From: Candidatus Iainarchaeum sp.
Lineage (GTDB): Archaea; Iainarchaeota; Iainarchaeia; Iainarchaeales; GCA-2688035
Length of the DNA stretch: 14,857 bases
Direction of reading: 5' to 3'
NCBI GenBank assembly: GCA_017610205.1
Contig: JAFCCL010000016.1
Span: forward strand, 1-14,857
The notes under the pieces are model-generated. The model was not told the DNA's origin, made no database searches, and worked only from the letters and a program-made list of their open reading frames with translations. A program made the translations under genes and the position numbers. Positions 1-14,855 of this stretch are shown piece by piece (position 1 is the first letter of the stretch; every line of letters starts with the position of its first letter).

Positions 1-249
1 GTCGCTAAGGTCGATAGCACTAACCTCAATTTTTCCACCAGTCACATTCTGCAAAACAAGCTCGGCACTATTCCCAGAAGCCGAGCTTCCTTTTAGCATG
101 ATTTTTGAAGGGTCTGAGCTTGAAAAACTGGCTGTAGTAGAAGTTGGGTTTATGACAAAAACAAGCACTCCAACAACACTGGCAATTATTACCAGTGCCC
201 AACCATAGGTCATTAAGTATTCTAATCCAGATTGTGCTTTTTGGTTCAT
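1..249 (-). CDS. Archaeal type IV pilin-like protein with class III signal peptide (3' end runs off the window)
   Basis: Not in the ORF track. Manual translation from ATG at 249 gives MNQKAQSGLEYLMTYGWALVIIASVVGVLVFVINPTSTTASFSSSDPSKIMLKGSSASGNSAELVLQNVTGGKIEVSAIDLSD..., open to position 1. It has a short basic leader, a KA|Q cleavage site, Gln+1/Glu+5 and a hydrophobic helix, and lies directly downstream of the Tad-like genes on the same strand. Confidence 0.9.
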   Translation of the reverse strand, partial: MNQKAQSGLEYLMTYGWALVIIASVVGVLVFVINPTSTTASFSSSDPSKIMLKGSSASGNSAELVLQNVTGGKIEVSAIDLSD

Positions 250-302: not shown

Positions 303-1226
303 TTAAAGCCCGCTTGCAACAAAGTAGGTGAAAAGAGAGCAGGGGAGGAGAATTGCTGCGTACAATACTGCCTTTTTGCTGTTGCCCTCCTGGTTTGCAA
401 TAAAAAAAGAGGCAATAATTGCGTATTCCGCGATATAAATCTTGTTTGCAAGAAGCACTGCTTCCAAAGCAGCCTGCCTTGCTCCTTCGCCCTGTCCAAT
501 TCCAAGCAATGAAAATGCCTCTAAATCAAAGCCGCTTACAAGTCCTGCAATAAGGCCAAGGACTGCCGGAACAATAAGGCCCCCTGCAAACAGCAAAGTG
601 TATTTTTCAATTACAAGCGAGGCATTTCTCTCCAAAAGAATTGCGTTTGTTTCAAGAATATCTGAAGCTGCTTCCCTAAATACTTTTCCCATGTCTGCAC
701 CTGTTTCATAGCCCTGTAAAAGCAATGCAACAGCTCTTGAAATTATCTGGCTTTTGTTTCTTTTGGCAAGCTCTTCAAGTGCCCTTTTTACGCTTGAGCC
801 CTTTTCAATTCCTGCAATTGCAGTTTCAAATTCTTTTGACAAAAGGCCAAAGTCCTGTTTTGAAATATATGAAAGAATTTTTGTTATCTCTGTTCCTTTT
901 GGAAAAATGCTTGCCTGCAGCAAGGCGTCTGGAACAAGCAATTCTTTTTTTCTCTTCCTCCATTCGAAAATGTATTGTTGAATGAAGTAGTTGAACATTG
1001 CTGGGGCGAGAAAACATCCAACAGCAACAATTGTTATGTAGAAGATTTGCATGTTTGTTGTGTAGCTTATAGCTATTGATGCAATGCTTAATGCAAATCC
1101 TGCAATCACTGCCTGTTTTGCAAAACCTTGCCAGCTGCTGTTGTTCATTTCAAGGGTTTCGCCAAAGCTGTTTAATGAATTGCTGCTGAAGAAGTATGAA
1201 AGCAGGTTGTTTACGTTTTTTTCCAT
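303..1226 (-). CDS. Type II secretion system F family (TadC-like) pilus platform membrane protein
   Basis: 307 aa with two N-terminal TM helices, a T2SSF-like helical segment ([64 protein letters not shown]) and C-terminal TM helices. AGGAGG at 1236-1241 (minus strand) lies just upstream of the ATG. It is in an operon with a secretion ATPase. Confidence 0.85.
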
Positions 1227-1229
1227 TTT

Positions 1230-1277
1230 TTATTGCCTCCTTAGAAAAGCAAGTTGGTTGTTGGAATGTTTTTCCAT
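1230..1277 (-). other. 15-codon mini-ORF (MEKHSNNQLAFLRRQ*) arising from duplication of the gene junction
   Basis: ATG at 1277 and TAA at 1232-1230. The start resembles the downstream gene start (MEKNVNN) and the end resembles the upstream gene end (VFLRGQ*). Translation is not demonstrated. Confidence 0.45.
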
Positions 1278-1279
1278 TT

Positions 1280-2038
1280 TTATTGCCCTCTGAGAAAAAC
1301 AGGTGTTTTGCCTTTTATGTAAAAGAGTACTGCAAGATCCAGTATTGGAAAGCCAACTGCAATTATCAGGAAAAGCTGGCTTGCTGTAAAATTCATGTGC
1401 AGTATTGCTGAGCCAACTATTGAAAAGCTTTGGAATAATGCCGGTACAATTGCTGAAACTGCTATAAATAAGAGGCTTAGCACTACGAGTTTTCCTGAGA
1501 ACAGTTTGCTTTCAACTTTTTGCCTTGTTAGAATTTCTAAGGCAATTTTTTTAACCGGCTCTTCGCTTCCTTTGCTTCCTTGTTCAAATGCTGCTGCAAG
1601 CTGTATTGCTGCTCTTTTTACAAGCCTGCTTTCAATTCTTTCTGAAAAATGTCTTAGTGCATCCTGCATGCTTGCGCCTTGTTCTTTTACTTCTTTTGCC
1701 ACTATGTTGAATTCGATTGCACTGCAATTGCTTGCTTTTGATGCGTGCTCTATTGTTTTTAGGAAGGGCACTCCCAATTCCAGTTCTATTGCAATGTTCA
1801 TTAAGGTAAATGGAATGCTTGCCTCTACAAGTCCTGCGTATTGTTTTCTTTTCATTTTTGGGTAATAATGCAGGGCTGCAAATGCCGGAAAAAAGCAGGC
1901 AATTGCAAGAGTTGCTCCCAACAGCATATTGTTCAAGTAAAGGCCTAGGGCAAGCCAGCATGCTATTGAAAAAACAATTGCCTGCCTTGCGTAATTTCTT
2001 GTTTTTGTATCAATTTTTGTAATTGAATTAAATTTCAA
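1280..2038 (-). CDS. Type II secretion system F family (TadB-like) membrane protein
   Basis: 252 aa with two N-terminal TMs, a T2SSF-like segment (IPFTLMNIAIELELGVPFLKTIE...EFNIVAKEVKEQGASMQDALRHFSERIESRLVKRA) and C-terminal TMs. It lies between the ATPase and the second F-family gene. The TTG start is uncertain. Confidence 0.85.
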   Translation of the reverse strand: MKFNSITKIDTKTRNYARQAIVFSIACWLALGLYLNNMLLGATLAIACFFPAFAALHYYPKMKRKQYAGLVEASIPFTLMNIAIELELGVPFLKTIEHASKASNCSAIEFNIVAKEVKEQGASMQDALRHFSERIESRLVKRAAIQLAAAFEQGSKGSEEPVKKIALEILTRQKVESKLFSGKLVVLSLLFIAVSAIVPALFQSFSIVGSAILHMNFTASQLFLIIAVGFPILDLAVLFYIKGKTPVFLRGQ

Positions 2039-2105
2039 AATTTGTTCGCCTTTTCATTTTTTTTTCATTGTTCTTTTTTTCCATTTTTTTCCAATTGTTT
2101 GTTGT

Positions 2106-3614
2106 TCAAATTTTGTTCACTTTTTCAAAAAATTCTTTCATTTTAATTTTGCTGCATTGCATTCCTGCAAGAATTCCTGCTCTGCGTTCAATTTCTTTTT
2201 CAAATCCTTTTCTGCCAAAGCAAAATCCCTGTTTTGCCTTTTCAAATACCTTTACACTCTTGCCTTTTCTTACAAGTTTTCTCTTATCATAATCAAATTT
2301 AAACAAGGTATTGCATTCAACTTTCCTGTTTTTTTCACATAGTTCGGCAACCTCTACAATGTGCCTTACTTCTCTGTTGCCTTTTTGGTCAATTGAATCC
2401 TTTTTTTCCATAACATTCCATCTTCTTTGTACAAGTACCAGGTCTATTGCTGCAAGGTCTATTTCAAGCACTCCAAGTGACCGCATTCTGTTTAAGGTTT
2501 CTTTAATGCTTTGTCCGTGGAATGTTGCATAAGAGCCTTTGCCTTGTCCTGCAAGCAGTGTGTCAATAAAGGCTGAAACTTCTTCCCTGCTTCTTACTTC
2601 TCCTATGATTATTCTGTCAGGTCTCATTCTGAGGCTTTCAACAATGAGGTTTTGCATTCCGACAGATTGTTCTTTTACTACGTTGAGTTTTACAAAATGT
2701 TTGTGCTGCACTCTTATTTCTGGAGTTTCTTCTACAACAATAATTCTTTCATTTTTTGGAACAAATGAAAGCAATGCATTCAAACTGCTTGTTTTTCCTG
2801 AACCTGTGTTGCCTGCAATTAGGATAGAGCAATCGCATTGCATTGCAATCCACAAAAATGCCATTAGTTCGTGTGAAAATGTTTTGTTTTCCAAAAGTTG
2901 TGTTGGTGTAAATGGCTCTTGTCTGAATTTTCTTATTGTAAGGCTTGGCCCTGAAAAAGAAACCGGGCTTAGGACTGCGCTAAGTCTGTTGCCATCTGGG
3001 AGTGTGGCATTTAGCACAGGGCTGTTCATTGAAAGCCGTCTTCCAACAGGTCTTGCCATTTTGTTTACTATGTCTGTTACTGCCTGCCTGTTGTTAAAAA
3101 ATACATTGCTTGCCATCCAACCGTGTCTTGTGTGAAAAATGTACAATGGCTTGCTTTTTCCTGTTCCAACAACTGCAATCTCTTCAATTTCTTCATCTTT
3201 TAAGAAGAAATCAAATGGCCCAAAGCCAAAAAGATTGCTTTCAAGGGCAAGAAAAAGATATGTTGCTTGTTTTTTTTCAAGCAAAATAAGGTTTTGTGTG
3301 CAGTATTTTTTGAAAAATTTTTTCAAATCTTTTTTTCCTGCTTTTCCTTCCTTTTTCTGGAAAAGCCTTGCAACAGATGCCAAAAGAACTTCTTCCTCTG
3401 CAGTAAATTTGGGAAATTCGTTAATACAATACCTTTTTTCATTGCCTTGCAACTGGCTTTGCACTGGAAGGATATTCCAGCCAATCCCTTCCTCGTTCTC
3501 TTCGTTGTCTTCCTCGTCTTCTTCGCATTTTCTTTTCAATTCTATTTGTTTACGTTTGTCTTCCTCGTCTTCTTTGCTTTTTCTTTCTTCAGCAAAATCG
3601 GTTTCCAAAGACAT
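2106..3614 (-). CDS. Type II/IV secretion system ATPase (CpaF/TadA/VirB11 family)
   Basis: Walker A GNTGSGKTS, Asp box VVEETPEI, Walker B LRMRPDRIIIGEVR, His box ATFHG, plus LPDGNRL...LTIRKF. Start placed at ATG 3614 (MSLETD) rather than TTG 3656, because a TATA-like element abuts 3656 and GGAAGTG precedes 3614. Confidence 0.93.
   Translation of the reverse strand: MSLETDFAEERKSKEDEEDKRKQIELKRKCEEDEEDNEENEEGIGWNILPVQSQLQGNEKRYCINEFPKFTAEEEVLLASVARLFQKKEGKAGKKDLKKFFKKYCTQNLILLEKKQATYLFLALESNLFGFGPFDFFLKDEEIEEIAVVGTGKSKPLYIFHTRHGWMASNVFFNNRQAVTDIVNKMARPVGRRLSMNSPVLNATLPDGNRLSAVLSPVSFSGPSLTIRKFRQEPFTPTQLLENKTFSHELMAFLWIAMQCDCSILIAGNTGSGKTSSLNALLSFVPKNERIIVVEETPEIRVQHKHFVKLNVVKEQSVGMQNLIVESLRMRPDRIIIGEVRSREEVSAFIDTLLAGQGKGSYATFHGQSIKETLNRMRSLGVLEIDLAAIDLVLVQRRWNVMEKKDSIDQKGNREVRHIVEVAELCEKNRKVECNTLFKFDYDKRKLVRKGKSVKVFEKAKQGFCFGRKGFEKEIERRAGILAGMQCSKIKMKEFFEKVNKI
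3505..3586. repeat. In-frame 51-nt-spaced duplication in the acidic N-terminus of the ATPase
   Basis: TTGTCTTCCTCGTCTTCTT occurs at 3505 and 3556, encoding RKCEEDEEDN and RKSKEDEEDK. Confidence 0.75.
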
Positions 3615-3656
3615 TTTTCTTTTACACTTCCAATGAAGGAAATGCCTTGGTTGCAA

Positions 3657-3670
3657 TTTAAACCTTTTGC
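3657..3670 (-). promoter_or_regulatory. Putative BRE/TATA promoter of the pilus operon
   Basis: Minus strand GCAAAAGG-TTTAAA about 45 nt upstream of ATG 3614, with the same architecture as the element at 7564-7580. Confidence 0.55.
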
Positions 3671-3750
3671 AGTTTTCGACAATTAACTAAGGGTCTTGTA
3701 ATGCTGGTGCTTGGTTTTTTTGCTTACTTGCTGGCTAAGCCTGTGTTAAT

Positions 3751-3780
3751 TAAAAAAAAGAAAAAGGGTTGGGAAAAAGG
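3751..3780 (-). terminator. Putative archaeal oligo-U terminator
   Basis: The minus strand immediately after the stop at 3783 is a pyrimidine tract with T runs of 5, 5 and 8. Confidence 0.55.
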
Positions 3781-3782
3781 CG

Positions 3783-6700
3783 TTACTTGCCTTTTCCCTT
3801 TGTTTTCATGTAATATGCTGCTGCACCAATTACTACCAGGATTATTATTATTATTGCAACTATTGGCAGTGTATAATCTACTGGTGGCTCTGGAGGTATT
3901 GGTGGTTCAGGTGGTGTAGTTGCTTTTTCAACACATGCGCCTGACTGGCACCATTTGTTGTCACCACAGCTTATTCCATCCTCGTAGTATTCGTAGTCGC
4001 ATATTCCTGTTGCAGGATTGCATTCGCCTGTTGCACAGATTTGTATTTCGCATGTTACTCCATCGCAAGGGGCTACCTCTGTGTATGCTGTTACCATTCC
4101 TAGTGGAAGCAGTCTTGCTGTAACATCGGAAATGCTTTTGTCTGTTGTGTACCTGATTTCCGCTGTTCCGCCAACCTGTATTTCTGGGATGATGAATTCA
4201 ATTATTGGGTCTGCTTTTAGTACTGTCATTGAATATTCGCTGTTTATTTGTGAAGCGTTTGATGCAATTCCTTTTGGAATTTCTGCAATTACTTTTACAT
4301 TTCTCCACTTTTTGTCTGAGGTATTATGCACCTTTATTGAAATCCAGGTTTGGTATGTTGAGCCTGTTTCGGTTGTTATTTTGTCAACTGCAACTGTCTG
4401 GTCTATTGCCGTATTCTCTGCAACTATTGTTGCTGTTGCAATTTCTTCTGTTGTGAATCCTGCTTCTTCAAGCGTGCTTGTTATGTCTTCTACTGCCGGG
4501 GTTCCCTGAATTTCCACTATCAAAATTGTTTCAGTTCCTTCAACTGGTGCTGGTGGAAGTCCTGGGCCAGTTGGACTGCCACCTCCTGGGATAACATTGC
4601 CGCTTGTTGGAGGTTTTAGTGTTACTGTGATTGTACTGTTTATATCACTGATGTTTCCTGCATAATCAAGGCATCCGCCTGTCCATATTTGTGTTTCTTC
4701 CTTTGATGAACTTGCACGTAGTGTAATTGTATCAGTGGCATTAGTGGTCCATTCACTTGCTGTGTTTTGTTTGAACAGGTATCCTTCTATATTTGAGGCA
4801 ACATTGTCGTCACAGTAGAGAGTTAAATTATAGCTACTGCTTTTTACTGTTGTAGCCGAATTCCCATAGTTTGTTCCGAATCTTGCTCTTGGAACATTGC
4901 TGTCGTTTACTGTAAAATTCAGCGTGCTACTGTTTATGTCCCATAATTCGTTTACATCAACTGTTTCTGCAAACCATTTATTTCCGTTTCCTTTTCCCAT
5001 TCCGAATGTTTTTTTTGTAGTGTTTAGTATGCGAACATCGAGGTAGTATTTCCCTTCCTGTACAAAGTTGGTATCAAATTGTGCATTGCAATTGTAGTCC
5101 AGCCATGGATCGCTGCGAGGCGGTTCTGTGCATTCTATTTTCATTGGAGCTGCTTCGCCTGGAAGTACAGCTGCCCAGAGGCCATTGTCTTGTAGTTCAA
5201 AATTTTGGTCCCATTGGTTTGTGTCCTTTCCTTGTCCTGAACCATATGCTATATTAAGGTCGTTTGTCAGTCCTCCTTGATACTCACTCAAGAAAAAGTG
5301 GATATTGTAGTCTGCCAGCGTGAAATTATTGTCTACGTTTGTATCAGGCAGATATATGTTGAAATCTATTACATAGTTTATGTCAAGACTTGCTGGGCCA
5401 TATTTATTTGCCAAAGTATATCCCTGTATCTGGAAATGATCTGCGGCGTTCAAGTTTGTGTCTGTTATTTCAATCAATGGAGGATTGAAGAAGACGTTTG
5501 CGTCACTTGAATCAAGAACAGACTGGTTTATGTCAGTTCTTTGAACTGTAAGATTGACATCAACTAAAAACTCTCCTGTTACGAAATTCAAATCATTTCT
5601 TGTCATGTCATAGACACAGGTTATCCAATCTGTTCTTGCCATATTCAAGTCATCATCCACTGTGCTTTCAAAGTAGCCGAATGTATCCCATTCATTGCAC
5701 CTTATTCCATTGGTGTCAAACAGGTTTGTATCATTGATAATCAAGCCTGTTCCTGCGCCTGAAACTGTTGAAAAGTACAGTTCGGCAACCATTGGTATTG
5801 CACCTGCTGCTGCAATATTGTTGTCCATTGTGTTCAGGTCTTTGAATTTGAAGCTTATTGTGTAATTTGAGTCGGAACCATTTCTTGGCTTTCTTATTTT
5901 TTCTCCGCCGTTAGGTGCCAGCATTTGGATTGTCAGCGGGCTTGCTTCATAGTTTGAAAATTCTGTTACTTTAAAAGAAAGATTTCCGTCGCCTACATCG
6001 CTGTTATAATCCCACGTAGTAGAGTTTTCTGAAAGCGTTGTTCCGTCAAGGTTTGTGCATATGCTTGAACTGCATGGCTGTCCGTCTTTGAGAACAAATG
6101 GAATCCATGCCTTTTCCATTTTTACATTGTACATAAATATGTTTGCGTCTTCTCTTGCAAATTCAGGCAGGTTTGTGGAATTTATGCTTACATAACCTGA
6201 CCTTCCGTTCATGTCTGTTGAATAATCTGCAACAGGTGTTTCCTTAAGGTTTACACCTGTATTGAACTTTACTTCAATTTCCCTTGTTCCAATATCATCA
6301 ATAGCTGTTCCCATTCTTACAATTAAGTTGCTGACTGCGTTGAAGTCTGTGAAAAGGCGGCTGAACATTGCTGTGTTAAGGTCGTATGTGTTATTGCTGA
6401 TTGTAACTGTTACATTCATGTCTACAGGCGCTGTTGTGATTTTTGGTGCTATGACAAAGACTGCATTCACATCTTTGTTTACTGATGAATATGCCCTTAA
6501 TGTATTTAGGTCTGACCTTCCAATAGTGCTTCCTGCTGAGTTGCTTACATATGGAATGGTGAGGTTTACGTCAAATTCACCGTTTTCGTCTGCCCAAATT
6601 TTGATTCCGTTCCAATCGCCTGCTAAAACATTCACATCTGCAGCGTCAATTACCATACTATTTGTGTCCAAGTCTGTACTTGCCCTATGAAATACCCCAA

Positions 6701-7487
6701 GTAATGGAACCGACTTTCCTCCAAAAGCGTAAGACTTTGAGAAATTCATATCGTTTTGGTATTTCAAAAATGCTGAGCTAAGCCTCTCACCGTTTGCATC
6801 GTAAATGCTTATTTGCACGTTGTTATCTGAATTATCACGTCCTGATGCAAACCCAAATCCAAAAATTGTAATGTTTTGGTCAATTGCTGCCACTATATTA
6901 CTGGTATTTGGAGTGTATACAAGTATCGCCGGTCCAATGATAAAGTTTCCGTCTGCAACTTTTGCTGCACCACATTTTGAAGCGTTATTTCCATTATTTA
7001 TAAGTGGCCATATTTCCACCATGACTTCGTGCCCAACAAGGTGGTTTATTTGACCTGTTGATGGAACTGTAACAGATACATTAAAAGTGTTCAAATCATT
7101 CCCTACTCCGGCTATAAAAGATAAAACATTCACATCTCCTGCACTGGCACAAGGGCCTTCTCCGCTTAAATTTCTTGTGACAACATTTGCATCAATTACT
7201 CCATCTGAATTGAAACTTGCAGTTGAACCCTGTGAGGTTGATGCTAACACTTTTACATTCAAATCCACATAAATTCCACCATAGTTTAGTGCAATAAGGT
7301 AATTGAAATCACTGTTTATATCTGTGGCAAATGCTTCTGGTAATAAAACATTAAAGTCTTCTCCTTTGTTTGCATGCCTTGAATTGTTTACGTCCCAAGC
7401 ATTCAAATCTTGAAAAATTGCGTTTGCGCTTGACATTATAAATATTAAAAGTGTCGAGAGCACTAAGAGTTTCATTAATTTATTCAT
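3783..7487 (-). CDS. Large secreted, C-terminally membrane-anchored surface (S-layer-like) protein
   Basis: 1234 aa. Sec signal peptide (MNKLMKLLVLSTLLIFIMSSANA), about 950 aa of beta-rich D/N/T/S-rich body with Ig-like hallmarks (LAPNGGE, CLDYAGN), a Pro/Gly linker and a further globular domain. These are followed by an 8-Cys module (CDGVTC...CQSGAC), a Pro-rich stalk, a TM helix (IVAIIIIILVVIGAAAYY) and a basic tail. The gene has a strong SD and its own promoter. The S-layer role is inference. Confidence 0.85.
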   Translation of the reverse strand: MNKLMKLLVLSTLLIFIMSSANAIFQDLNAWDVNNSRHANKGEDFNVLLPEAFATDINSDFNYLIALNYGGIYVDLNVKVLASTSQGSTASFNSDGVIDANVVTRNLSGEGPCASAGDVNVLSFIAGVGNDLNTFNVSVTVPSTGQINHLVGHEVMVEIWPLINNGNNASKCGAAKVADGNFIIGPAILVYTPNTSNIVAAIDQNITIFGFGFASGRDNSDNNVQISIYDANGERLSSAFLKYQNDMNFSKSYAFGGKSVPLLGVFHRASTDLDTNSMVIDAADVNVLAGDWNGIKIWADENGEFDVNLTIPYVSNSAGSTIGRSDLNTLRAYSSVNKDVNAVFVIAPKITTAPVDMNVTVTISNNTYDLNTAMFSRLFTDFNAVSNLIVRMGTAIDDIGTREIEVKFNTGVNLKETPVADYSTDMNGRSGYVSINSTNLPEFAREDANIFMYNVKMEKAWIPFVLKDGQPCSSSICTNLDGTTLSENSTTWDYNSDVGDGNLSFKVTEFSNYEASPLTIQMLAPNGGEKIRKPRNGSDSNYTISFKFKDLNTMDNNIAAAGAIPMVAELYFSTVSGAGTGLIINDTNLFDTNGIRCNEWDTFGYFESTVDDDLNMARTDWITCVYDMTRNDLNFVTGEFLVDVNLTVQRTDINQSVLDSSDANVFFNPPLIEITDTNLNAADHFQIQGYTLANKYGPASLDINYVIDFNIYLPDTNVDNNFTLADYNIHFFLSEYQGGLTNDLNIAYGSGQGKDTNQWDQNFELQDNGLWAAVLPGEAAPMKIECTEPPRSDPWLDYNCNAQFDTNFVQEGKYYLDVRILNTTKKTFGMGKGNGNKWFAETVDVNELWDINSSTLNFTVNDSNVPRARFGTNYGNSATTVKSSSYNLTLYCDDNVASNIEGYLFKQNTASEWTTNATDTITLRASSSKEETQIWTGGCLDYAGNISDINSTITVTLKPPTSGNVIPGGGSPTGPGLPPAPVEGTETILIVEIQGTPAVEDITSTLEEAGFTTEEIATATIVAENTAIDQTVAVDKITTETGSTYQTWISIKVHNTSDKKWRNVKVIAEIPKGIASNASQINSEYSMTVLKADPIIEFIIPEIQVGGTAEIRYTTDKSISDVTARLLPLGMVTAYTEVAPCDGVTCEIQICATGECNPATGICDYEYYEDGISCGDNKWCQSGACVEKATTPPEPPIPPEPPVDYTLPIVAIIIIILVVIGAAAYYMKTKGKGK

Positions 7488-7497
7488 AATTTATCCT

Positions 7498-7504
7498 ACC
7501 TCCT
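7498..7504 (-). promoter_or_regulatory. Shine-Dalgarno site of the surface protein gene
   Basis: AGGAGGT 10 nt upstream of ATG 7487. Confidence 0.8.
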
Positions 7505-7563
7505 ACAGTGGAATTTGAACGTTTACCCCCCAAAGGGAACTGGTAATACAAACATCATTCTAA

Positions 7564-7580
7564 TATATAAAGGTTTTTGC
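7564..7580 (-). promoter_or_regulatory. BRE/TATA promoter of the surface protein gene
   Basis: Minus strand GCAAAAACC-TTTATATA, matching the archaeal BRE plus TATA consensus, about 77 nt upstream of the ATG. Confidence 0.7.
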
Positions 7581-7599
7581 TTTGCATTTTTAAAAATGT

Positions 7600-7755
7600 T
7601 CCCAATTTTTTGTAAAATTCTGGAAATTGAATTTTAATAGAATTTTTTGTTTTTCCAATTTTTTTTTTTGAAATTTTTATATTTTTTTTTTGTTTTTTTT
7701 CCTTTTTTTTTTATTTTATTTTTTTTTGATTGTGTTGGTTTGTGGTTTTTTTTTA
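7600..7755. repeat. Low-complexity poly-T-rich spacer between divergent promoters
   Basis: Multiple T runs of 8-12 nt and very few C on the + strand. Confidence 0.8.
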
Positions 7756-7756
7756 C

Positions 7757-7770
7757 CAAAACCTTTAATA
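7757..7770 (+). promoter_or_regulatory. Putative BRE/TATA promoter for the P-type ATPase
   Basis: CAAAACC-TTTAATA, nearly the same as the opposite-facing CAAAAACC-TTTATATA at 7564-7579. Confidence 0.55.
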
Positions 7771-7809
7771 GTCGGGTGTTCTTTCTTATTTTTATTTCTT
7801 TAATATAGG

Positions 7810-7875
7810 GAAGTGTAATATATAAGAGTGTAATATAATAGAGTTCGGGTAGAAGTGTAATATATAAGAGTGTAA
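7810..7875 (+). repeat. Perfect 24-nt direct repeat (x2) containing four AGTGTAA units
   Basis: GAAGTGTAATATATAAGAGTGTAA at 7810-7833 and 7852-7875 (42-nt period). Confidence 0.9.
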
Positions 7876-7926
7876 ATATATATTAGAATGCAGGCAGGAT
7901 AGTTGAATTATATTGGAGTTGAATTA

Positions 7927-10629
7927 ATGCTTTGGCATAGTCTTGGTTTGGAGGATGTTTTTAAGCAGCTTGAGTCCGGGCGAAAGGGTCTTTCGTTTGG
8001 TTTGGCAAAGCAGAGGCTTAAGCAATTTGGTAAAAATGAAATAAGGCTTGAGAGGAAAATTTCTCCGCTGAAGATTTTTGCCGAGCAATTTAAGAGTGTT
8101 CTTGTTTTAGTGCTTTTGGCTGCGTCTTTTGTTTCCTTTGTTGTAAGCCTTTTTCCTGGTTATGAGGACAATTTAATCAATGCTATTCTAATTTTTGTGA
8201 TTGTTATTGCAAACGGGGTTTTTGGCTTTTTTCAGGAGTTTAAGGCTGAGAAGAGTTTGGAGGCTTTGAAGAAGATGAGTCCTAATAAGGCAATTGTGTT
8301 GCGTAATGGGCAGAAGCAGGTTGTTGATGCTGTTGAGCTTGTTCCTGGTGACGTGGTTTTTTTGGAGGCTGGTGAGCTTGTTCCTGCTGATGCGCGTGTT
8401 TTTCAGGCGAGGAATTTGCATTTGGATGAATCGCTTTTGACTGGTGAAAGCATGCCTGTTAGTAAGCGTACTAAGGTTTTGCCACAGCAGACAAATTTGG
8501 CAGAGCGCATTAACATGGTTTTCAAAAATAGTGTTGTTACAAGCGGAACAGGGCTTGCAATGGTAACTGAAACAGGTCTTAAGACCGAGGTTGGAAAGAT
8601 TGCTGAAAGCCTGCATGGTCCTGGTCAAAAGGCAACTCCGTTTCAGGTTGAGCTTGACAGGCTTGGGAAAAGAATTGGTTTTCTTGTTGTTATTGTTGTT
8701 GCTTTTGTTGCTTTGAATCAGTTGTTTTTTCTGAATGTTGACGGTTCTTTTGCAAACAGGCTTGTTATAGTTTTTTTGACTGCGGTTAGCCTTGCTGTTG
8801 CAGCTATTCCTGAGGGTTTGCCGGCGGTTGTTACCTGGAGTCTTGGTTTGGGAACGAGGCGGATGGCAAAAAATAATGCTTTGGTAAGAAAGCTTGCTTC
8901 TGTTGAGGGTTTGGGTGATGTTGATGTTATTTGCACTGATAAAACAGCAACTCTTACTGAGAACAGAATGACTGTTACCAGAATTTTTTCAAATGGAAAA
9001 ACTGTTAATGTTACCGGAACAGGCCATGATCTTGATGGAAATTTTTTGCTTGGTAAAATAAAAATTCCTGCTTCTGAGTTTGAGCCAATTTTAAGGGCTG
9101 GTGCTTTGTGCAATGATTCTGAGATTTCTTTTGATGAGGATAACAACAAGATTTTTGTAGGTGATCCAACTGAAATAGCGTTTCTTGTAAGTGCAAGGAA
9201 GGCTGGTTTTAGTGAGAAGAGGATTTTGCTTTCAATGCCACGAATTAATGAAATTCCATTTGAGTCTGAGAAAAAGAGAATGGTTACAGTGCATGATGCT
9301 GGGAACGGAAAGCAGGTTGTTTTTATGAAGGGCGCGCCTGAAATTGTGCTTGAGCATTGTTCAAAAATTTTGTTGCAGGGAAAAGAAGTTAAGTTGTGCA
9401 AAAAGAATGTTGATGAAATTCTTGAAAAAAACAAGTTTTTTGCTTCACAGGCTTTAAGGGTTCTTGGTTTTGCATACAAAAAGGAAAAGAAAGGCGGCAA
9501 AAAATTTGAGGAAGAACTTGTTTTTCTTGGATTGCAGGCAATGATTGACCCTCCGAGAAAAGAGGTAAAGGCAAGCATTTCAGAATGCAAGAGTGCTGGT
9601 ATAAGAGTTGTGATGCTAACAGGTGATAACATTGTTACTGCAAAGTCGATTGCTGAACAGCTTGGCATTAAGGGAAAGGCATTGGACGGAAACAAGGTTC
9701 ACAAGCTTACTGACGAGCAGCTTTCTTTTGCCGTTGAGGAAACAGGAATTTTTGCAAGGGTTTCTCCTGATGCAAAACTTCAAGTGCTTAAAGCATTGCA
9801 GGCAAATGGCCATGTGGTTGCAATGACTGGAGATGGTGTAAATGATGCGCCTGCATTGCATGCTGCTGATGTTGGGGTTTCAATGGGCTTGCGTGGAACC
9901 GATGTTGCAAGGGAGGCGTCTGATATAATTTTGCTTGACGACAATTTTAGCACAATTGTGCTTGCTGTAAAGGAAGGGCGTACTATTTTTGACAATATAA
10001 GAAAATTTGTAAATTATTTAATGACCTGCAATCTTGCAGAGGTTCTTGTGGTTTTTCTTCTTTCTTTTGGAGGCTTTATTGCCCTTTTTCCAGCCCAGCT
10101 TCTTTGGATTAATCTTTTAACAGACGGACCGCCGGCTCTTGCCATTGGAATTGACCCAGGCAATAAGGACATAATGAAACGAAAGCCAAAGAAAAAAAAT
10201 GAGGGCGTGATAAACAAAAGGCTTGCTTATTTGATTGCAGGAATTGGGGTTTGGATGACAATTCTTTTAATAGGAGTTTTCTTTATTGGATTTTCCTTTG
10301 GAGGAATTGTTCTTGCCCAAACAATGCTTTTCACAGGCTTTATCTTATACGAATTTGTCAGAATTGTAGTAATAAGGCAACAGGAGCATATTGGGCTTTT
10401 TGAAAACAAGTGGCTTGTTTACGCAGTTGGCTTTTCTTTGTTTTTACAATTACTGCTTTTGTACACGCCTTTAAGCAGCCTTTTTTCACTGGTTCAGCTT
10501 AGCTTGTTTCCAATCACACAGCTTGAAATATTCTTTTGGTCAGTACTCTTAGGCGGCGTGGCAATTGGCTGGATTGGGGCGTTTGTAATAACAAAGCTTG
10601 TTGTAAGTGCAACACCTACTCAAAACTGA
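7927..10629 (+). CDS. P-type cation-transporting ATPase, type IIA (SERCA-like Ca2+-ATPase)
   Basis: Motifs TGES, AIPEGL, CTDKTATLT (variant phosphorylation motif), KGAPE, DPPR, MLTGDN and TGDGVNDAPAL. M5 CNLAEV, M6 WINLLTDG and M8 LYE align by eye with SERCA Ca-ligands N768/E771, N796/T799/D800 and E908. Start set at ATG 7927 (GGAG at 7915-7918) rather than TTG 7903. Confidence 0.93.
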   Translation: MLWHSLGLEDVFKQLESGRKGLSFGLAKQRLKQFGKNEIRLERKISPLKIFAEQFKSVLVLVLLAASFVSFVVSLFPGYEDNLINAILIFVIVIANGVFGFFQEFKAEKSLEALKKMSPNKAIVLRNGQKQVVDAVELVPGDVVFLEAGELVPADARVFQARNLHLDESLLTGESMPVSKRTKVLPQQTNLAERINMVFKNSVVTSGTGLAMVTETGLKTEVGKIAESLHGPGQKATPFQVELDRLGKRIGFLVVIVVAFVALNQLFFLNVDGSFANRLVIVFLTAVSLAVAAIPEGLPAVVTWSLGLGTRRMAKNNALVRKLASVEGLGDVDVICTDKTATLTENRMTVTRIFSNGKTVNVTGTGHDLDGNFLLGKIKIPASEFEPILRAGALCNDSEISFDEDNNKIFVGDPTEIAFLVSARKAGFSEKRILLSMPRINEIPFESEKKRMVTVHDAGNGKQVVFMKGAPEIVLEHCSKILLQGKEVKLCKKNVDEILEKNKFFASQALRVLGFAYKKEKKGGKKFEEELVFLGLQAMIDPPRKEVKASISECKSAGIRVVMLTGDNIVTAKSIAEQLGIKGKALDGNKVHKLTDEQLSFAVEETGIFARVSPDAKLQVLKALQANGHVVAMTGDGVNDAPALHAADVGVSMGLRGTDVAREASDIILLDDNFSTIVLAVKEGRTIFDNIRKFVNYLMTCNLAEVLVVFLLSFGGFIALFPAQLLWINLLTDGPPALAIGIDPGNKDIMKRKPKKKNEGVINKRLAYLIAGIGVWMTILLIGVFFIGFSFGGIVLAQTMLFTGFILYEFVRIVVIRQQEHIGLFENKWLVYAVGFSLFLQLLLLYTPLSSLFSLVQLSLFPITQLEIFFWSVLLGGVAIGWIGAFVITKLVVSATPTQN

Positions 10630-12857: not shown

Positions 12858-14855
12858 TCATGATCCAAACACCATTGCAGTGCCGTTGTAGTCAAGGTAC
12901 ATCTCCCCAAACCATATTCTGTTTAAGTCTGGTTCTATTGACACACCATTGTCTGTTCCAGTTTGAGTTATGTTCAAATCTCCTTCTATTAAAGTGTTGC
13001 CCATTATGTTTACGTCTCCAATTACATCTAGTTTGTTTTGTGGAACTGCTGTCCCAATACCAACGTCCCCTGCTGTTGTCATTGTAAACATTGTGCCAGT
13101 TGTCAATGTATTATCAGCATTCCAAGCCATCTTAAATCTTTTTTCATTACTGTTATCTGTTCCCAAATTCCAATAACCAGCACCACTAACTCCAAGAGCA
13201 AGTACAGGGTCGCCTGCATTAGCCCCCCCAGTCATAATTCGTAATCGTGCATTTGACCCTACTTCTGTATTATCTAAGTTTTGAAGTGTTAAATAAACAC
13301 TACTTGTAGATGTATCAGAAACATGCAAAAGAGCTGTTTGGTTTGTTATTCCAATGCCTACTTTTCCATCTGCATTAACACTCAAAGCAGGATTTGGAGA
13401 ACCATCAGACGCACTCAACTCAGAATGCCTATGCAAAGCATCAGCCATAGAATCATCAGTAAGGCTATCCAAATCATAGGAAAATAGTGAAGCATACATT
13501 GAATTAAAATCAGCAGTAGTCATAAAATTAGAATCAACACCAATTGCATTATTGTCAATATCTGCTTCAGTTGGAATGTAATCAGATGTTGTAATTCCGG
13601 TCAAACCAGAACCATCTCCAAACAAAAAGTCAGCTTCAACCGTATAAGCATTTACATCCCAAGAACTAAAACCAAACAAGCCAGTGTTAATATCATAGTC
13701 TGCTCCTATGTATGGTACGAAGTTTGCGTTTGTGTCTGTTTTTCCGTAGTAGTGTGTGTTTAGGTCTGCTATTGTTGTGTAGGTTAGTCTGCTTGTGTTG
13801 TTTGTGTCGAAGATGCTTAGGTATTGTGAGTTGAAGTCGGTTGTTGTCATGTAGTTTGTGTCTATTGCTATTGCGTTGTTGTCTATGTCGGCTTCTGTTG
13901 GGATGTATCCTGTTGCTATTCCTGTTAGTTGGCTTCCGTCTCCGAAGTATGTTGCTGTTAGGCTGTTGATGTTTGCGTCTCCTAGTGCATTCAAGTCGTT
14001 TACTACTACTGAGTTATCGTTGAAGTTGTTTAGATCTTTTCCCAGTGTTATTGCTGTGTCTCCGAATGCTCTTGCGTTTCTTCCTATTGCTATTGATCCT
14101 GTTCCTTCTGCTGTTGAGTTTGTGTCTGCGTATCCTAGTACTACTGTTCCTGATCCTGTTGAGTTTATTGTTCCGCCGTTTGCGTATCCTGCGGCTATGC
14201 TTCCTGGTCCGCTTGCTACCATGTTTGTATCACTGTATCCTAGTGCTACTGCTCCGTCGCCTATTGCAAAGAATTTATATGTAAACCCGCAGCCTGGGTC
14301 GTAGCATCCATATCCAGCCGCAATTGATCCTGTTCCTGCTGAATTTGGATAGTAGCCAATTGCTACGCTTGCAGAAGAACCACTTGCTGCTCCACCACTG
14401 CCGAGTGAAACTGAGTATAGGCCACTTGCTATTGAACCACTGCCTGATGCCATGCTTCCCATCCCGCTTGCAGTGCCATTTAATGATAGGCTGTAATTTC
14501 CGCTTGCTACTGAATTAAGTCCGATTGCTGTGCTTTGGTCTCCTGATGCGGTTGTTCCTGAACCAAGTGCTATGCTTTGGTCTCCAGAAGCTGTTGTTGC
14601 GTTTCCTAGTGCTACTGCGTTTGTTCCACTTGCGTCTGTTGCTGCACTGCTTATGAATTTTGCTCCTTTTATGAAGTTTGTGGCGTTTATGTCGTATGCT
14701 TCTAAGTCATATGTTCCCAAGTCTGTGTCGTAGTTTGCTCCGATGTATGGTACGAAGTTTGCGTTGATATCTGTTTGGGTTGGTATTCCTGTTAATTTAG
14801 AACCGTCTCCGAAGTATGTTTCTGCTGTTATGCTTGTTGTGTTTAGGTCGTTTGT
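12858..14855 (-). CDS. Fibre/adhesin-like protein with YadA-head-like repeats and tail-fibre-type motifs (5' end outside the window)
   Basis: The frame stays open upstream of the TTG at 14720 to the window edge (TNDLNTTSITAETYFGDGSKLTGIPTQTDINANFVPYIGANYDTD-LGTYD...). It has about 14-aa repeats of type ASGxxSxAxG, three FGDGSxLTGI, two NANFVPYIGAxYD, two YIPTEADIDNNAI, GKVGIG/GDVGIGT motifs and an HRH motif. Confidence 0.85.
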   Translation of the reverse strand, partial: TNDLNTTSITAETYFGDGSKLTGIPTQTDINANFVPYIGANYDTDLGTYDLEAYDINATNFIKGAKFISSAATDASGTNAVALGNATTASGDQSIALGSGTTASGDQSTAIGLNSVASGNYSLSLNGTASGMGSMASGSGSIASGLYSVSLGSGGAASGSSASVAIGYYPNSAGTGSIAAGYGCYDPGCGFTYKFFAIGDGAVALGYSDTNMVASGPGSIAAGYANGGTINSTGSGTVVLGYADTNSTAEGTGSIAIGRNARAFGDTAITLGKDLNNFNDNSVVVNDLNALGDANINSLTATYFGDGSQLTGIATGYIPTEADIDNNAIAIDTNYMTTTDFNSQYLSIFDTNNTSRLTYTTIADLNTHYYGKTDTNANFVPYIGADYDINTGLFGFSSWDVNAYTVEADFLFGDGSGLTGITTSDYIPTEADIDNNAIGVDSNFMTTADFNSMYASLFSYDLDSLTDDSMADALHRHSELSASDGSPNPALSVNADGKVGIGITNQTALLHVSDTSTSSVYLTLQNLDNTEVGSNARLRIMTGGANAGDPVLALGVSGAGYWNLGTDNSNEKRFKMAWNADNTLTTGTMFTMTTAGDVGIGTAVPQNKLDVIGDVNIMGNTLIEGDLNITQTGTDNGVSIEPDLNRIWFGEMYLDYNGTAMVFGS

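Follow-up and report, generated by a model that had tools for sequence, protein, structure and literature searches.

Why would a surface protein place an aspartate two residues ahead of an asparagine more than fifty times over? The question is raised by a stretch of 14,857 nucleotides (the whole of it is called the window here) from Candidatus Iainarchaeum sp., contig JAFCCL010000016.1 of GenBank assembly GCA_017610205.1, a genome of 1.37 Mb in 24 contigs. The window encodes P0001, a protein of 1234 amino acids whose ectodomain is filled with the tripeptide D-x-N (Asp, any residue, Asn). Hardly any of the giant surface proteins of DPANN archaea, which live attached to other cells, have been characterised. 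A preliminary description, made from the DNA letters, had proposed that D-x-N is enriched in extracellular proteins generally and may serve as a modification code, read by an oligosaccharyltransferase that recognises the Asp at -2 and has relaxed the Ser/Thr requirement at +2. Here we describe what sequence comparison indicates is a lineage-specific family of immunoglobulin-like (Ig-like) surface domains with an unusually dense and conserved D-x-N element, and we ask what that element does.

P0001 consists of a signal peptide, a D-x-N-rich ectodomain, a C-terminal anchor module common to other proteins, a membrane helix, and a Lys-rich tail. Its parts are as follows; the region singled out by the preliminary description (4630-7420) corresponds to residues 23-953.

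3783..7487, minus strand: gene of the surface protein P0001 (open reading frame list and translation)
7419..7487, minus strand: Sec-type signal peptide, residues 1-23, a hydrophobic core followed by A-N-A (read from the translation, predictor-free)
4623..7418, minus strand: predicted all-beta ectodomain, residues 24-955, with 54 D-x-N (counts, shuffles, AlphaFold2, Foldseek, conservation)
3783..4622, minus strand: C-terminal module, residues 956-1234, free of D-x-N, stop codon included (counts; matches elsewhere)

The D-x-N excess in P0001

Composition-preserving shuffles of residues 1-955 give 8.8 +/- 2.7 D-x-N; P0001 carries 54 (z 16.8), a count reached in 0 of 2000 shuffles. Local shuffles in windows of 10, 20, or 40 residues yield means of 9.4-11.0 and a maximum of 24 (n = 3000)—the excess persists, whether residues are shuffled globally (0/2000) or locally (0/3000). 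The hand counts of the preliminary description were exact, with 54 D-x-N and 12 of these continuing as N-x-S/T; its remark that the membrane-proximal 280 or so residues hold none is also correct, as there are 0 in the last 279 (residues 956-1234) against 0.4 expected.

Most of the Asp in the ectodomain belongs to the motif (54 of 77 in residues 24-955). Over residues 1-955, DN occurs 6 times, NxD 7 times, and DxxN twice, each against 8.9 expected; ExN is absent (0 vs 4.0), and N-x-S/T occurs 27 times against 17.4 (z 2.6). At the nucleotide level, GAYNNNAAY is found 54, 0, and 2 times across the three frames of the gene, and Asp and Asn each use both of their codons; the signal therefore lies at the protein level, and a DNA-level cause is ruled out.

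Conservation and replacement of motif residues

A search of 5.8 billion proteins found 18 homologues of P0001 at 31-55% identity. The family is small, since a full HMMER scan of 1.84 billion representatives returned just 29 proteins at E<=0.001. D-x-N counts range over 48-58 in the 16 full-length homologues and are 41 and 30 in the two shorter ones (1086 and 860 amino acids). In the alignment of these 18 homologues with P0001, conservation reaches 86% for the motif Asp and 85% for the motif Asn, while Asp and Asn elsewhere stand at 34% and 36%; Cys, at 98%, is the sole residue type above the motif pair. Forty-one motif positions are retained in at least 15 of the 19 sequences.

The two residues also tend to be kept or lost together. 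Among 924 alignment cells, both are kept in 754 and both lost in 95—a class inflated by shared ancestry and local misalignment—while Asn alone is lost in 46 and Asp alone in 29. The first position is Asp in 800 of the 924 cells, and its 124 replacements include N (32), S (20), T (16), A (13), G (7), P (7), and V (7), with E found once. N, S, and T share with D the ability to form Asx/ST turns. At the third position (141 replacements) E (22), D (20), S (20), Q (19), and T (13) predominate, and swapped pairs are seen: NxQ in 9 cells, NxE in 5, and SxE in 5.

Canonical glycosylation sites evolve differently. Whereas motif Asn is 82-90% conserved in the P0001 family, conservation drops to 42% for the 15 Asn of canonical N-x-S/T that lie outside the motif, with the entire sequon retained in 21% of cells; judged from the alignment, this low retention is the turnover expected of glycosylation sites.

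Sequence context and predicted fold

The surroundings of the motif were read from 701 motifs in 13 diverse members of the P0001 family. The middle residue is enriched in L, M, V, A, and F and the residue after Asn in I, F, V, and Y, while Asp, Glu, Lys, and Asn are underrepresented around the motif (two residues past the motif Asn, Asp stands at 0.54-fold and Asn at 0.37-fold). Since these hydrophobic residues alternate with D and N, the two polar side chains should point to one side of a strand and those of their neighbours to the opposite side. Pro is nearly absent, both at x (1/701, 2/599, and 0/236 in three protein sets) and directly after the motif Asn (5/701); such exclusion at -1 and +1 is expected of any beta-strand, and hence does not discriminate from a sequon. 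E-x-N falls below expectation in three protein sets (22 vs 52, 37 vs 66, and 7 vs 12).

AlphaFold2 models were read as secondary structure and confidence values. The model of residues 24-960, built from 19 sequences, is all-beta and multi-domain, with a mean predicted local distance difference test score (pLDDT) of 66.8 and a predicted template modelling score (pTM) of 0.45. In 19 of the 54 motifs, against 10.2 expected, a predicted strand begins 1-3 residues after the Asp, and 14 of 5000 random draws reach 19. For the whole ectodomain, Foldseek returns strings of Ig-like domains at E-values as low as 8e-13, with template modelling (TM) scores that are low owing to the domain arrangement; titin, alpha-2-macroglobulins, and the S-layer proteins 8c8l and 4aq1 are among the matches. 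Sequence searches place P0001 in no described group: it matches 0 Pfam and 0 NCBIfam families, PDB sequence profiles reveal no known family for the protein or its domains, and its best score in the ESM Atlas, 0.82, is under the level that counts as a lead.

A repeated Ig-like domain

A profile seeded with P0001 residues 522-672 and iterated four times over the proteins assembled for the analysis gave 187 domain matches in 66 proteins. P0001 contains five (among them two weak ones that overlap), and a 1911-amino-acid protein on contig C3 (C3:18739-24474) another five; the P0001 and C3 proteins thus share a diverged domain of about 144 positions. The copies in P0001, with independent E-values (i-E) where they are strong, are:

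5472..5924, minus strand: strongest copy, residues 522-672, with 10 D-x-N (profile i-E 1.7e-43)
4899..5393, minus strand: second strong copy, residues 699-863 (i-E 8.5e-30; also found in a genome-wide search with alignment A3)
6501..6920, minus strand: weaker copy, residues 190-329 (profile match)
residues 21-102 and 44-184, minus strand: two overlapping weak matches (profile)

The weaker matches have i-E of 5.6e-12, 1.8e-08, and 0.0013. Among 75 non-redundant copies (<=60% mutual identity), D-x-N falls into 14 canonical columns, the best of which are filled in 62 of 67 and 67 of 75 copies, although these columns are partly self-reinforcing because the profile was iterated on D-x-N-rich sequences. 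The mean is 9.1 D-x-N per copy. A single-domain model from 43 sequences is an Ig-like sandwich (pLDDT 77, pTM 0.73), for which Foldseek returns generic Ig-like matches only (best E 7.7e-4, TM <=0.43).

The copies are not recent duplicates. Window-to-window profile comparison over 120-residue windows of P0001 found no internal repeats, with at most 75% probability over 18 columns; the repeated domain emerged only with the iterated profile. At E<=10, two of the domain copies match zero Pfam families and a third has non-significant matches only; a Pfam trehalase Ca2+-binding match to the domain is likewise not significant (E 0.2). Sequence profiles of solved structures gave no match to the domain, its second half being weakly like 'bacterial immunoglobulin domain B1' 9kvu (E 0.72). 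The domain is present in 69 of 121 sampled Iainarchaeota genomes and in 42 of 53 genera; in the collection of 5.8 billion proteins its profile found 26, and the sole informative name among them is a Diapherotrites archaeon Ig-like protein.

Distribution across the genome and the lineage

For the genome as a whole, gene calling was crude (longest non-overlapping open reading frames, n = 1310), and proteins were assigned to secreted, multi-membrane, and cytoplasmic classes by a hydrophobicity heuristic. Once the four top proteins are set aside, D-x-N occurs 241 times against 255 expected in the secreted class (0.94) and 424 against 439 in the cytoplasmic class (0.97). The claimed enrichment in extracellular proteins generally does not survive this count—the excess of the genome is confined to a few giant surface proteins, namely P0001, the contig C3 proteins, and a fibre. 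N-x-S/T stands at 1.10 of expectation in the heuristic secreted class and 1.01 in the cytoplasmic class, a small effect. The two non-secreted proteins counted in the window are without bias, as the preliminary description had said of the cytoplasmic enzymes, with 4 D-x-N against 1.6 in a P-type ATPase and 1 against 1.0 in a FlaI-like ATPase. Fifty pilin-like candidates, drawn by a loose class-III signal pattern that lets in false positives, hold 36 D-x-N against 27.9 expected when pooled, with zero in 36 of the 50; N-x-S/T occurs in them 83 times against 73.6, again a small effect.

At the C3 locus D-x-N counts are 71 against 17.3 and 19 against 7.0, and an open frame at the start of contig C3 has 93 against 28.4. 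The giant D-x-N-rich region on this contig (C3:17900-28200, locus L065) contains an assembly gap, written as a run of N, and its three frames (26761-28260, 24449-26899, and 18742-24489) may belong to a single gene or to two.

Beyond this genome, the anchor module recurs in many surface proteins of the order. On its own, the C-terminal module of P0001 matches many other surface proteins in 36 of the 41 genomes searched (the present genome included), and it also matches other surface proteins encoded in the present genome. Forty anchor-module loci were sampled by longest frames, independent of motif content. Among them, 21 proteins with a terminal membrane helix carry 632 D-x-N, 4.2-fold over the 151 expected, with at least 2.5-fold enrichment in 19 of them; 15 proteins with a Lys-Trp-type tail carry 119 against 77, and 1 of the 15 reaches 2.5-fold. 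Big_7 (PF17957) matches occur in 11 of 15 D-x-N-rich relatives scanned, and LamG domains within D-x-N-rich proteins contain zero D-x-N. The proteins with the Lys-Trp-type tail form a second class of surface protein, which has part of the anchor module and, in place of a membrane helix, a Lys-rich tail with a Lys-Trp-x-Tyr-type ending (loci L037, L040-L044, L046-L052, and L058); this class is not D-x-N-rich.

The fibre is the second D-x-N-rich protein of the window.

12858..14855, minus strand: fibre P0002, the C-terminal 665 amino acids of a tail-fibre-like protein, 5'-open at the contig end, with 23 D-x-N (Pfam YadA_head, Chlorovi_GP_rpt)
contig C8, 4517-6607: N-terminal part of the fibre, the continuation of P0002, with 27 D-x-N against 5.1 expected

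The fibre gene is split over two contig ends; the end of the C8 frame repeats the start of the window frame, and the whole protein would have about 1340 amino acids. The preliminary figure of about 23 D-x-N for P0002 stands, and it compares with 5.0 expected (z 8.7, reached in 0/2000 shuffles). The motif Asp and Asn again lead in conservation within the close fibre family, at 77% and 69%, compared with 31% for other Asp and 15% for other Asn. Among the 120 fibre homologues listed, the nine closest are 4.4-6.9-fold enriched in D-x-N, whereas the other 111 have a median of 0.97, ten of them exceeding 3-fold. Most of these distant relatives carry tail-fibre Pfam domains (PF05658, PF13884), and the homology to them probably runs through YadA-head repeats (most carry PF05658). 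This region of P0002 (residues 75-270) holds 2 of the 23 motifs, so the distant relatives do not provide a clean test of whether D-x-N is inherent in the fold.

The claim that the motif accumulated in non-homologous proteins holds in part. P0001, the C3 proteins, and the fibre are unrelated by BLAST, but P0001 and the C3 protein share the repeated Ig-like domain. The motifs also map to a repeated fold, a result that the preliminary description had named as counting against its proposal: they take canonical positions in the Ig-like domain. The fibre family is unrelated, and some enriched ectodomains have no match to the domain profile. D-x-N is a lineage-level feature of several beta-rich ectodomain types, neither a quirk of one fold nor a property of all extracellular domains.

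D-x-N as a probable structural element

We favour the reading that D-x-N is a conserved local structural element of beta-rich ectodomains in the membrane-anchored surface proteins of this lineage, and we consider it probable, with ample room for doubt. It is favoured because the positions are fixed, conservation is extreme, the two residues are lost together, the replacements follow a pattern, Glu is nearly absent, and hydrophobic flanks stand ahead of strands. In such an element, Asp would be placed one to three residues ahead of a beta-strand, or on the first turn of the strand; the middle residue and the residue after Asn, both hydrophobic, would face the domain core, and Asp and Asn would sit side by side on the opposite strand face. 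Asp could act as an Asx-type cap, its side chain bonded to a backbone NH, with Asn pairing with Asp, so that the two jointly set the strand start and probably present a pair of oxygen ligands for Ca2+ or another cation. We infer the hydrogen-bond geometry of Asp and Asn, as well as any ion binding; within the structural reading we divide our confidence about evenly between an element that also binds cations and one of hydrogen bonds only.

Several known systems are similar in part. D-x-N resembles the Asx-turn, the ST-motif, and the capping box in that its first residue gives way to N, S, or T in 68 of 124 replacements and practically never to Glu, its third residue, a hydrogen-bonding partner, varies in step with the first, and the unit precedes a secondary-structure element; the first-position restriction of Asx-turns and ST-motifs to D, N, S, or T is found here as well. 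To our knowledge, there is no protein family in which a D-x-N-type unit marks most strands, at about 9 per 144-residue domain. Big_7 is alike in fold class, although neither P0001 nor its domain copies belong to any Pfam family. For the fibre P0002 only, and not the Ig-like domains, the HxH metal motifs of phage tail fibres offer an analogy—a ligand pair at i and i+2 with a hydrophobic middle residue, repeated along a fibrous beta protein—with Asp and Asn instead of His.

Gene neighbourhood and the cation question

The Ca2+-stabilised Ig- and cadherin-like arrays (cadherin DxNDN/DxD, RTX-adhesin) share with P0001 the string of Ig-like domains, an acidic surface protein, Asp/Asn at i and i+2, and, here, an adjacent Ca2+-ATPase gene. 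Unlike the cadherin or EF-hand (DxDxDG) loops, D-x-N stands without a longer pattern, Asp after the motif Asn is rare, and Gly is not required; the 701 motifs do not follow the EF-hand-type continuation D-x-[DN]-x-[DN]-G. A PDB profile search with P0001 and the domain gave no sequence match to any solved Ca2+-binding domain. The genes around P0001 are:

7903..10629, plus strand: P2-type Ca2+-transporting ATPase, divergent from P0001 (Pfam, NCBIfam)
2106..3656, minus strand: FlaI/TadA-like secretion ATPase, downstream of P0001 (Pfam T2SSE, NCBIfam)
1280..2038 and 303..1226, minus strand: two FlaJ/TadC-like membrane proteins, downstream of P0001 (Pfam T2SSF, NCBIfam)

By NCBIfam, the Ca2+-ATPase scores 510 bits as PMCA-type (cut-off 507) and 646-663 bits as PMR1-/SERCA-type, under the cut-offs of those families. 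In all 7 of the related genomes with enough upstream flank it adjoins the P0001 homologue, including one genome from another family whose homologue is at 31% identity. In most related loci the secretion ATPase comes next after the P0001 homologue; in one genome (G037) it was not found within 1.6 kb. Together these genes make up a conserved cluster (window 303-10629; loci L003-L019) of divergent Ca2+-ATPase, P0001 homologue, FlaI/TadA-like ATPase, and FlaJ/TadC-like proteins. Close relatives at three of these loci (L012, L013, and L014) lie in records titled Chloroflexota, Chloroflexi, and Candidatus Falkowbacteria, which are probably mislabelled or chimeric bins.

Residues 24-955 of P0001 contain 112 acidic and 54 basic residues, and the motif residues, along with most of their replacements, bear side-chain oxygens. 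The acidic ectodomain and the neighbouring Ca2+-ATPase lend some support to a role for Ca2+. Dense Ca2+-binding turns, which the preliminary description had offered as its other possibility, are still a possible reading.

Several observations weigh against D-x-N as a structural element, or against its cation-binding form. A structural motif leaves the lineage specificity unexplained, and it does not account for eight other large secreted proteins of the genome that are depleted in D-x-N (33 vs 60.8, z -3.8), of which five look like paralogues, leaving fewer than eight independent observations. Nor does it account for the appearance of the motif in several ectodomain types that the domain profile misses, with strongly enriched examples in L027 (57 vs 10.9) and L028 (42 vs 8.4). 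Ser/Thr at +2 of the motif Asn is more frequent than background in the P0001 family (182/701, or 26.0%, vs 17.0%) and in other anchor-module proteins (24.9% vs 18.0%), as a sequon would have it. Glu is rare at the first position (1/124) despite being a good Ca2+ ligand, and known Ca2+ loops are unmatched in that Asp directly after the motif Asn stands at 0.07-fold (4 cases of 701) and Asn at 0.28-fold. To these we add the self-reinforcement of the canonical columns, the medium confidence of both structure models (pLDDT 66.8 and 77), and the fact that a shared neighbourhood among relatives is weak evidence of function.

In the depleted giants, DxxN and NxD are at expectation and ND is low too (36 vs 61.4). 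The eight proteins lie within five ranges:

contig C12, 4204-12681
contig C18, 3926-26703
contig C19, 29771-36577
contig C19, 92896-104679
contig C20, 32352-35966

Alternative readings

The first alternative is that D-x-N is a recognition element for Asn modification, specific to Iainarchaeota and independent of Ser/Thr at +2, used either by the single AglB through the -2 Asp or by another enzyme. The precedent is the extended sequon of Campylobacter PglB, D/E-x-N-x-S/T, in which the -2 acid is read through the basic residue R331; in Halobacterium, one Asn is reportedly glycosylated without need for a Ser at +2. D-x-N shares with the PglB sequon an Asp two residues before Asn, the exclusion of Pro between them, and a place in extracellular proteins. 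It is directional, with NxD, DN, and DxxN at expectation; it recurs in differing architectures within one lineage; Ser/Thr at +2 is mildly enriched; enrichment in some giants together with avoidance in the eight others could reflect a recognition code; and genes for AglB and a cis-prenyltransferase are present. If the reading were true, these would be densely decorated surface proteins with one modified Asn per ~17 residues, and D-x-N would be a new protein-modification sequon in Archaea.

We nevertheless think a modification signal unlikely. The motif rejects Glu, which the PglB sequon accepts in place of Asp, and E-x-N is depleted; only 22-26% of motifs have Ser/Thr at +2, and in the fibre family the figure is at background (36/236, or 15.3%, vs 16.5%). 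Motif residues are conserved like those of a protein core, at 82-90%, far exceeding the canonical sequon Asn and the whole sequon, and the replacement of Asn by E, D, Q, or S, coupled to the first residue, keeps hydrogen bonding rather than an acceptor Asn. A surface sequon does not need a strongly hydrophobic x and post-Asn residue. The motif is also not enriched in the secretome at large (0.94 of expectation, as given above), and it is absent from most pilin-like proteins, whose N-x-S/T count was 83 against 73.6, and from the LamG domains of the same polypeptides. An oligosaccharyltransferase that reads the -2 Asp with a relaxed +2 position, as first proposed, is thus weakly supported: the pattern is not secretome-wide, 36 of 50 pilin-like candidates are without it, and Glu does not substitute.

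The enzyme itself also speaks against the modification reading. One STT3/AglB match was found in the present genome (L001:685-2847, minus strand), and it has WWDEG; the WWDxG motif, which serves the +2 hydroxyl in canonical archaeal AglB, is thus intact. In the 'DK-like' stretch further downstream, Asp and Lys are separated by one residue more than in the canonical DxxK. By sequence, the solved structures closest to this AglB are those of eukaryotic STT3 and of the short Archaeoglobus AglB C-terminal domains, and a PDB sequence search at E<=1 gave no alignment with PglB. Among 50 AglB loci of the phylum (L078-L127), WWD was found in 35—24 WWDEG, 7 WWDYG, 3 WWDQG, and 1 WWDNG—and was not found in 15. 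The residue after WWD varies by clade: most have E, family f3 and a small number of others have Y, and Q or N is rare. A link between this residue and the D-x-N domain was considered and rejected: it does not track domain presence, as four domain-less genomes have WWDEG and one genome with the domain (G016) has WWDYG. Family f3, with WWDYG, has no domain match.

A second and more doubtful alternative is that the exposed Asp/Asn pairs form an interaction surface, possibly bridged by cations, for a lattice or filament or for contacts with a host cell or mineral. The concentration of the motif in membrane-anchored giants (632 vs 151 in the 21 proteins with a membrane helix, 19 of them at least 2.5-fold enriched) is consistent with such a surface, as are the place of P0001 at the head of a conserved cluster with FlaI/TadA-like ATPase and FlaJ/TadC-like proteins and the presence of the S-layer proteins 8c8l and 4aq1 among the Ig-like strings found by Foldseek. 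However, 54 points spread over every domain, at strand starts and with hydrophobic neighbours, better fit an intramolecular role, and symbiont adhesins usually show variable binding surfaces, in contrast to the top conservation of the motif residues.

Least credible by far is an artefact of composition, internal repeats, or a DNA-level signal: D and N are abundant in these proteins, and part of the 23 fibre motifs sits in duplicated fibre segments (read from the translation), but no shuffle, global (0/2000) or local (0/3000), reaches 54, the DNA pattern is in frame only with mixed codons, recent internal repeats are missing (top window-to-window match 75% probability over 18 columns), and motif positions are kept in homologues at 31-55% identity.

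Significance and further observations

Full-text literature searches, judged from listings, found no description of such a D-x-N motif; papers that name a 'DxN motif' concern glycosyltransferases, topoisomerase VI, EEPD1, and a lectin. The analysis yields about nine conserved D-x-N per Ig-like domain as a signature, a profile for a domain that has no Pfam family, and a conserved cluster of Ca2+-ATPase, surface protein, and FlaI-like genes. If D-x-N initiates strands or binds Ca2+, it would provide a new design rule for extracellular beta-sandwich proteins and a handle for their recognition in metagenomes.

Further genes in the window encode a cis-prenyltransferase and a DUF192 protein. In P0001 itself, residues 956-1234 comprise, in order, a Pro/Thr/Gly linker, an alpha/beta module, a Cys-rich stretch, a Pro-rich linker, the membrane helix, and the Lys-rich tail. 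The Cys-rich stretch (residues ~1139-1187; window 3783-4100) is weakly like the disintegrin-like region of ADAMTS-1 (profile E 0.034), and matches to Pfam Dicty_CTDC occur at the same position in two relatives (L026 and L063).

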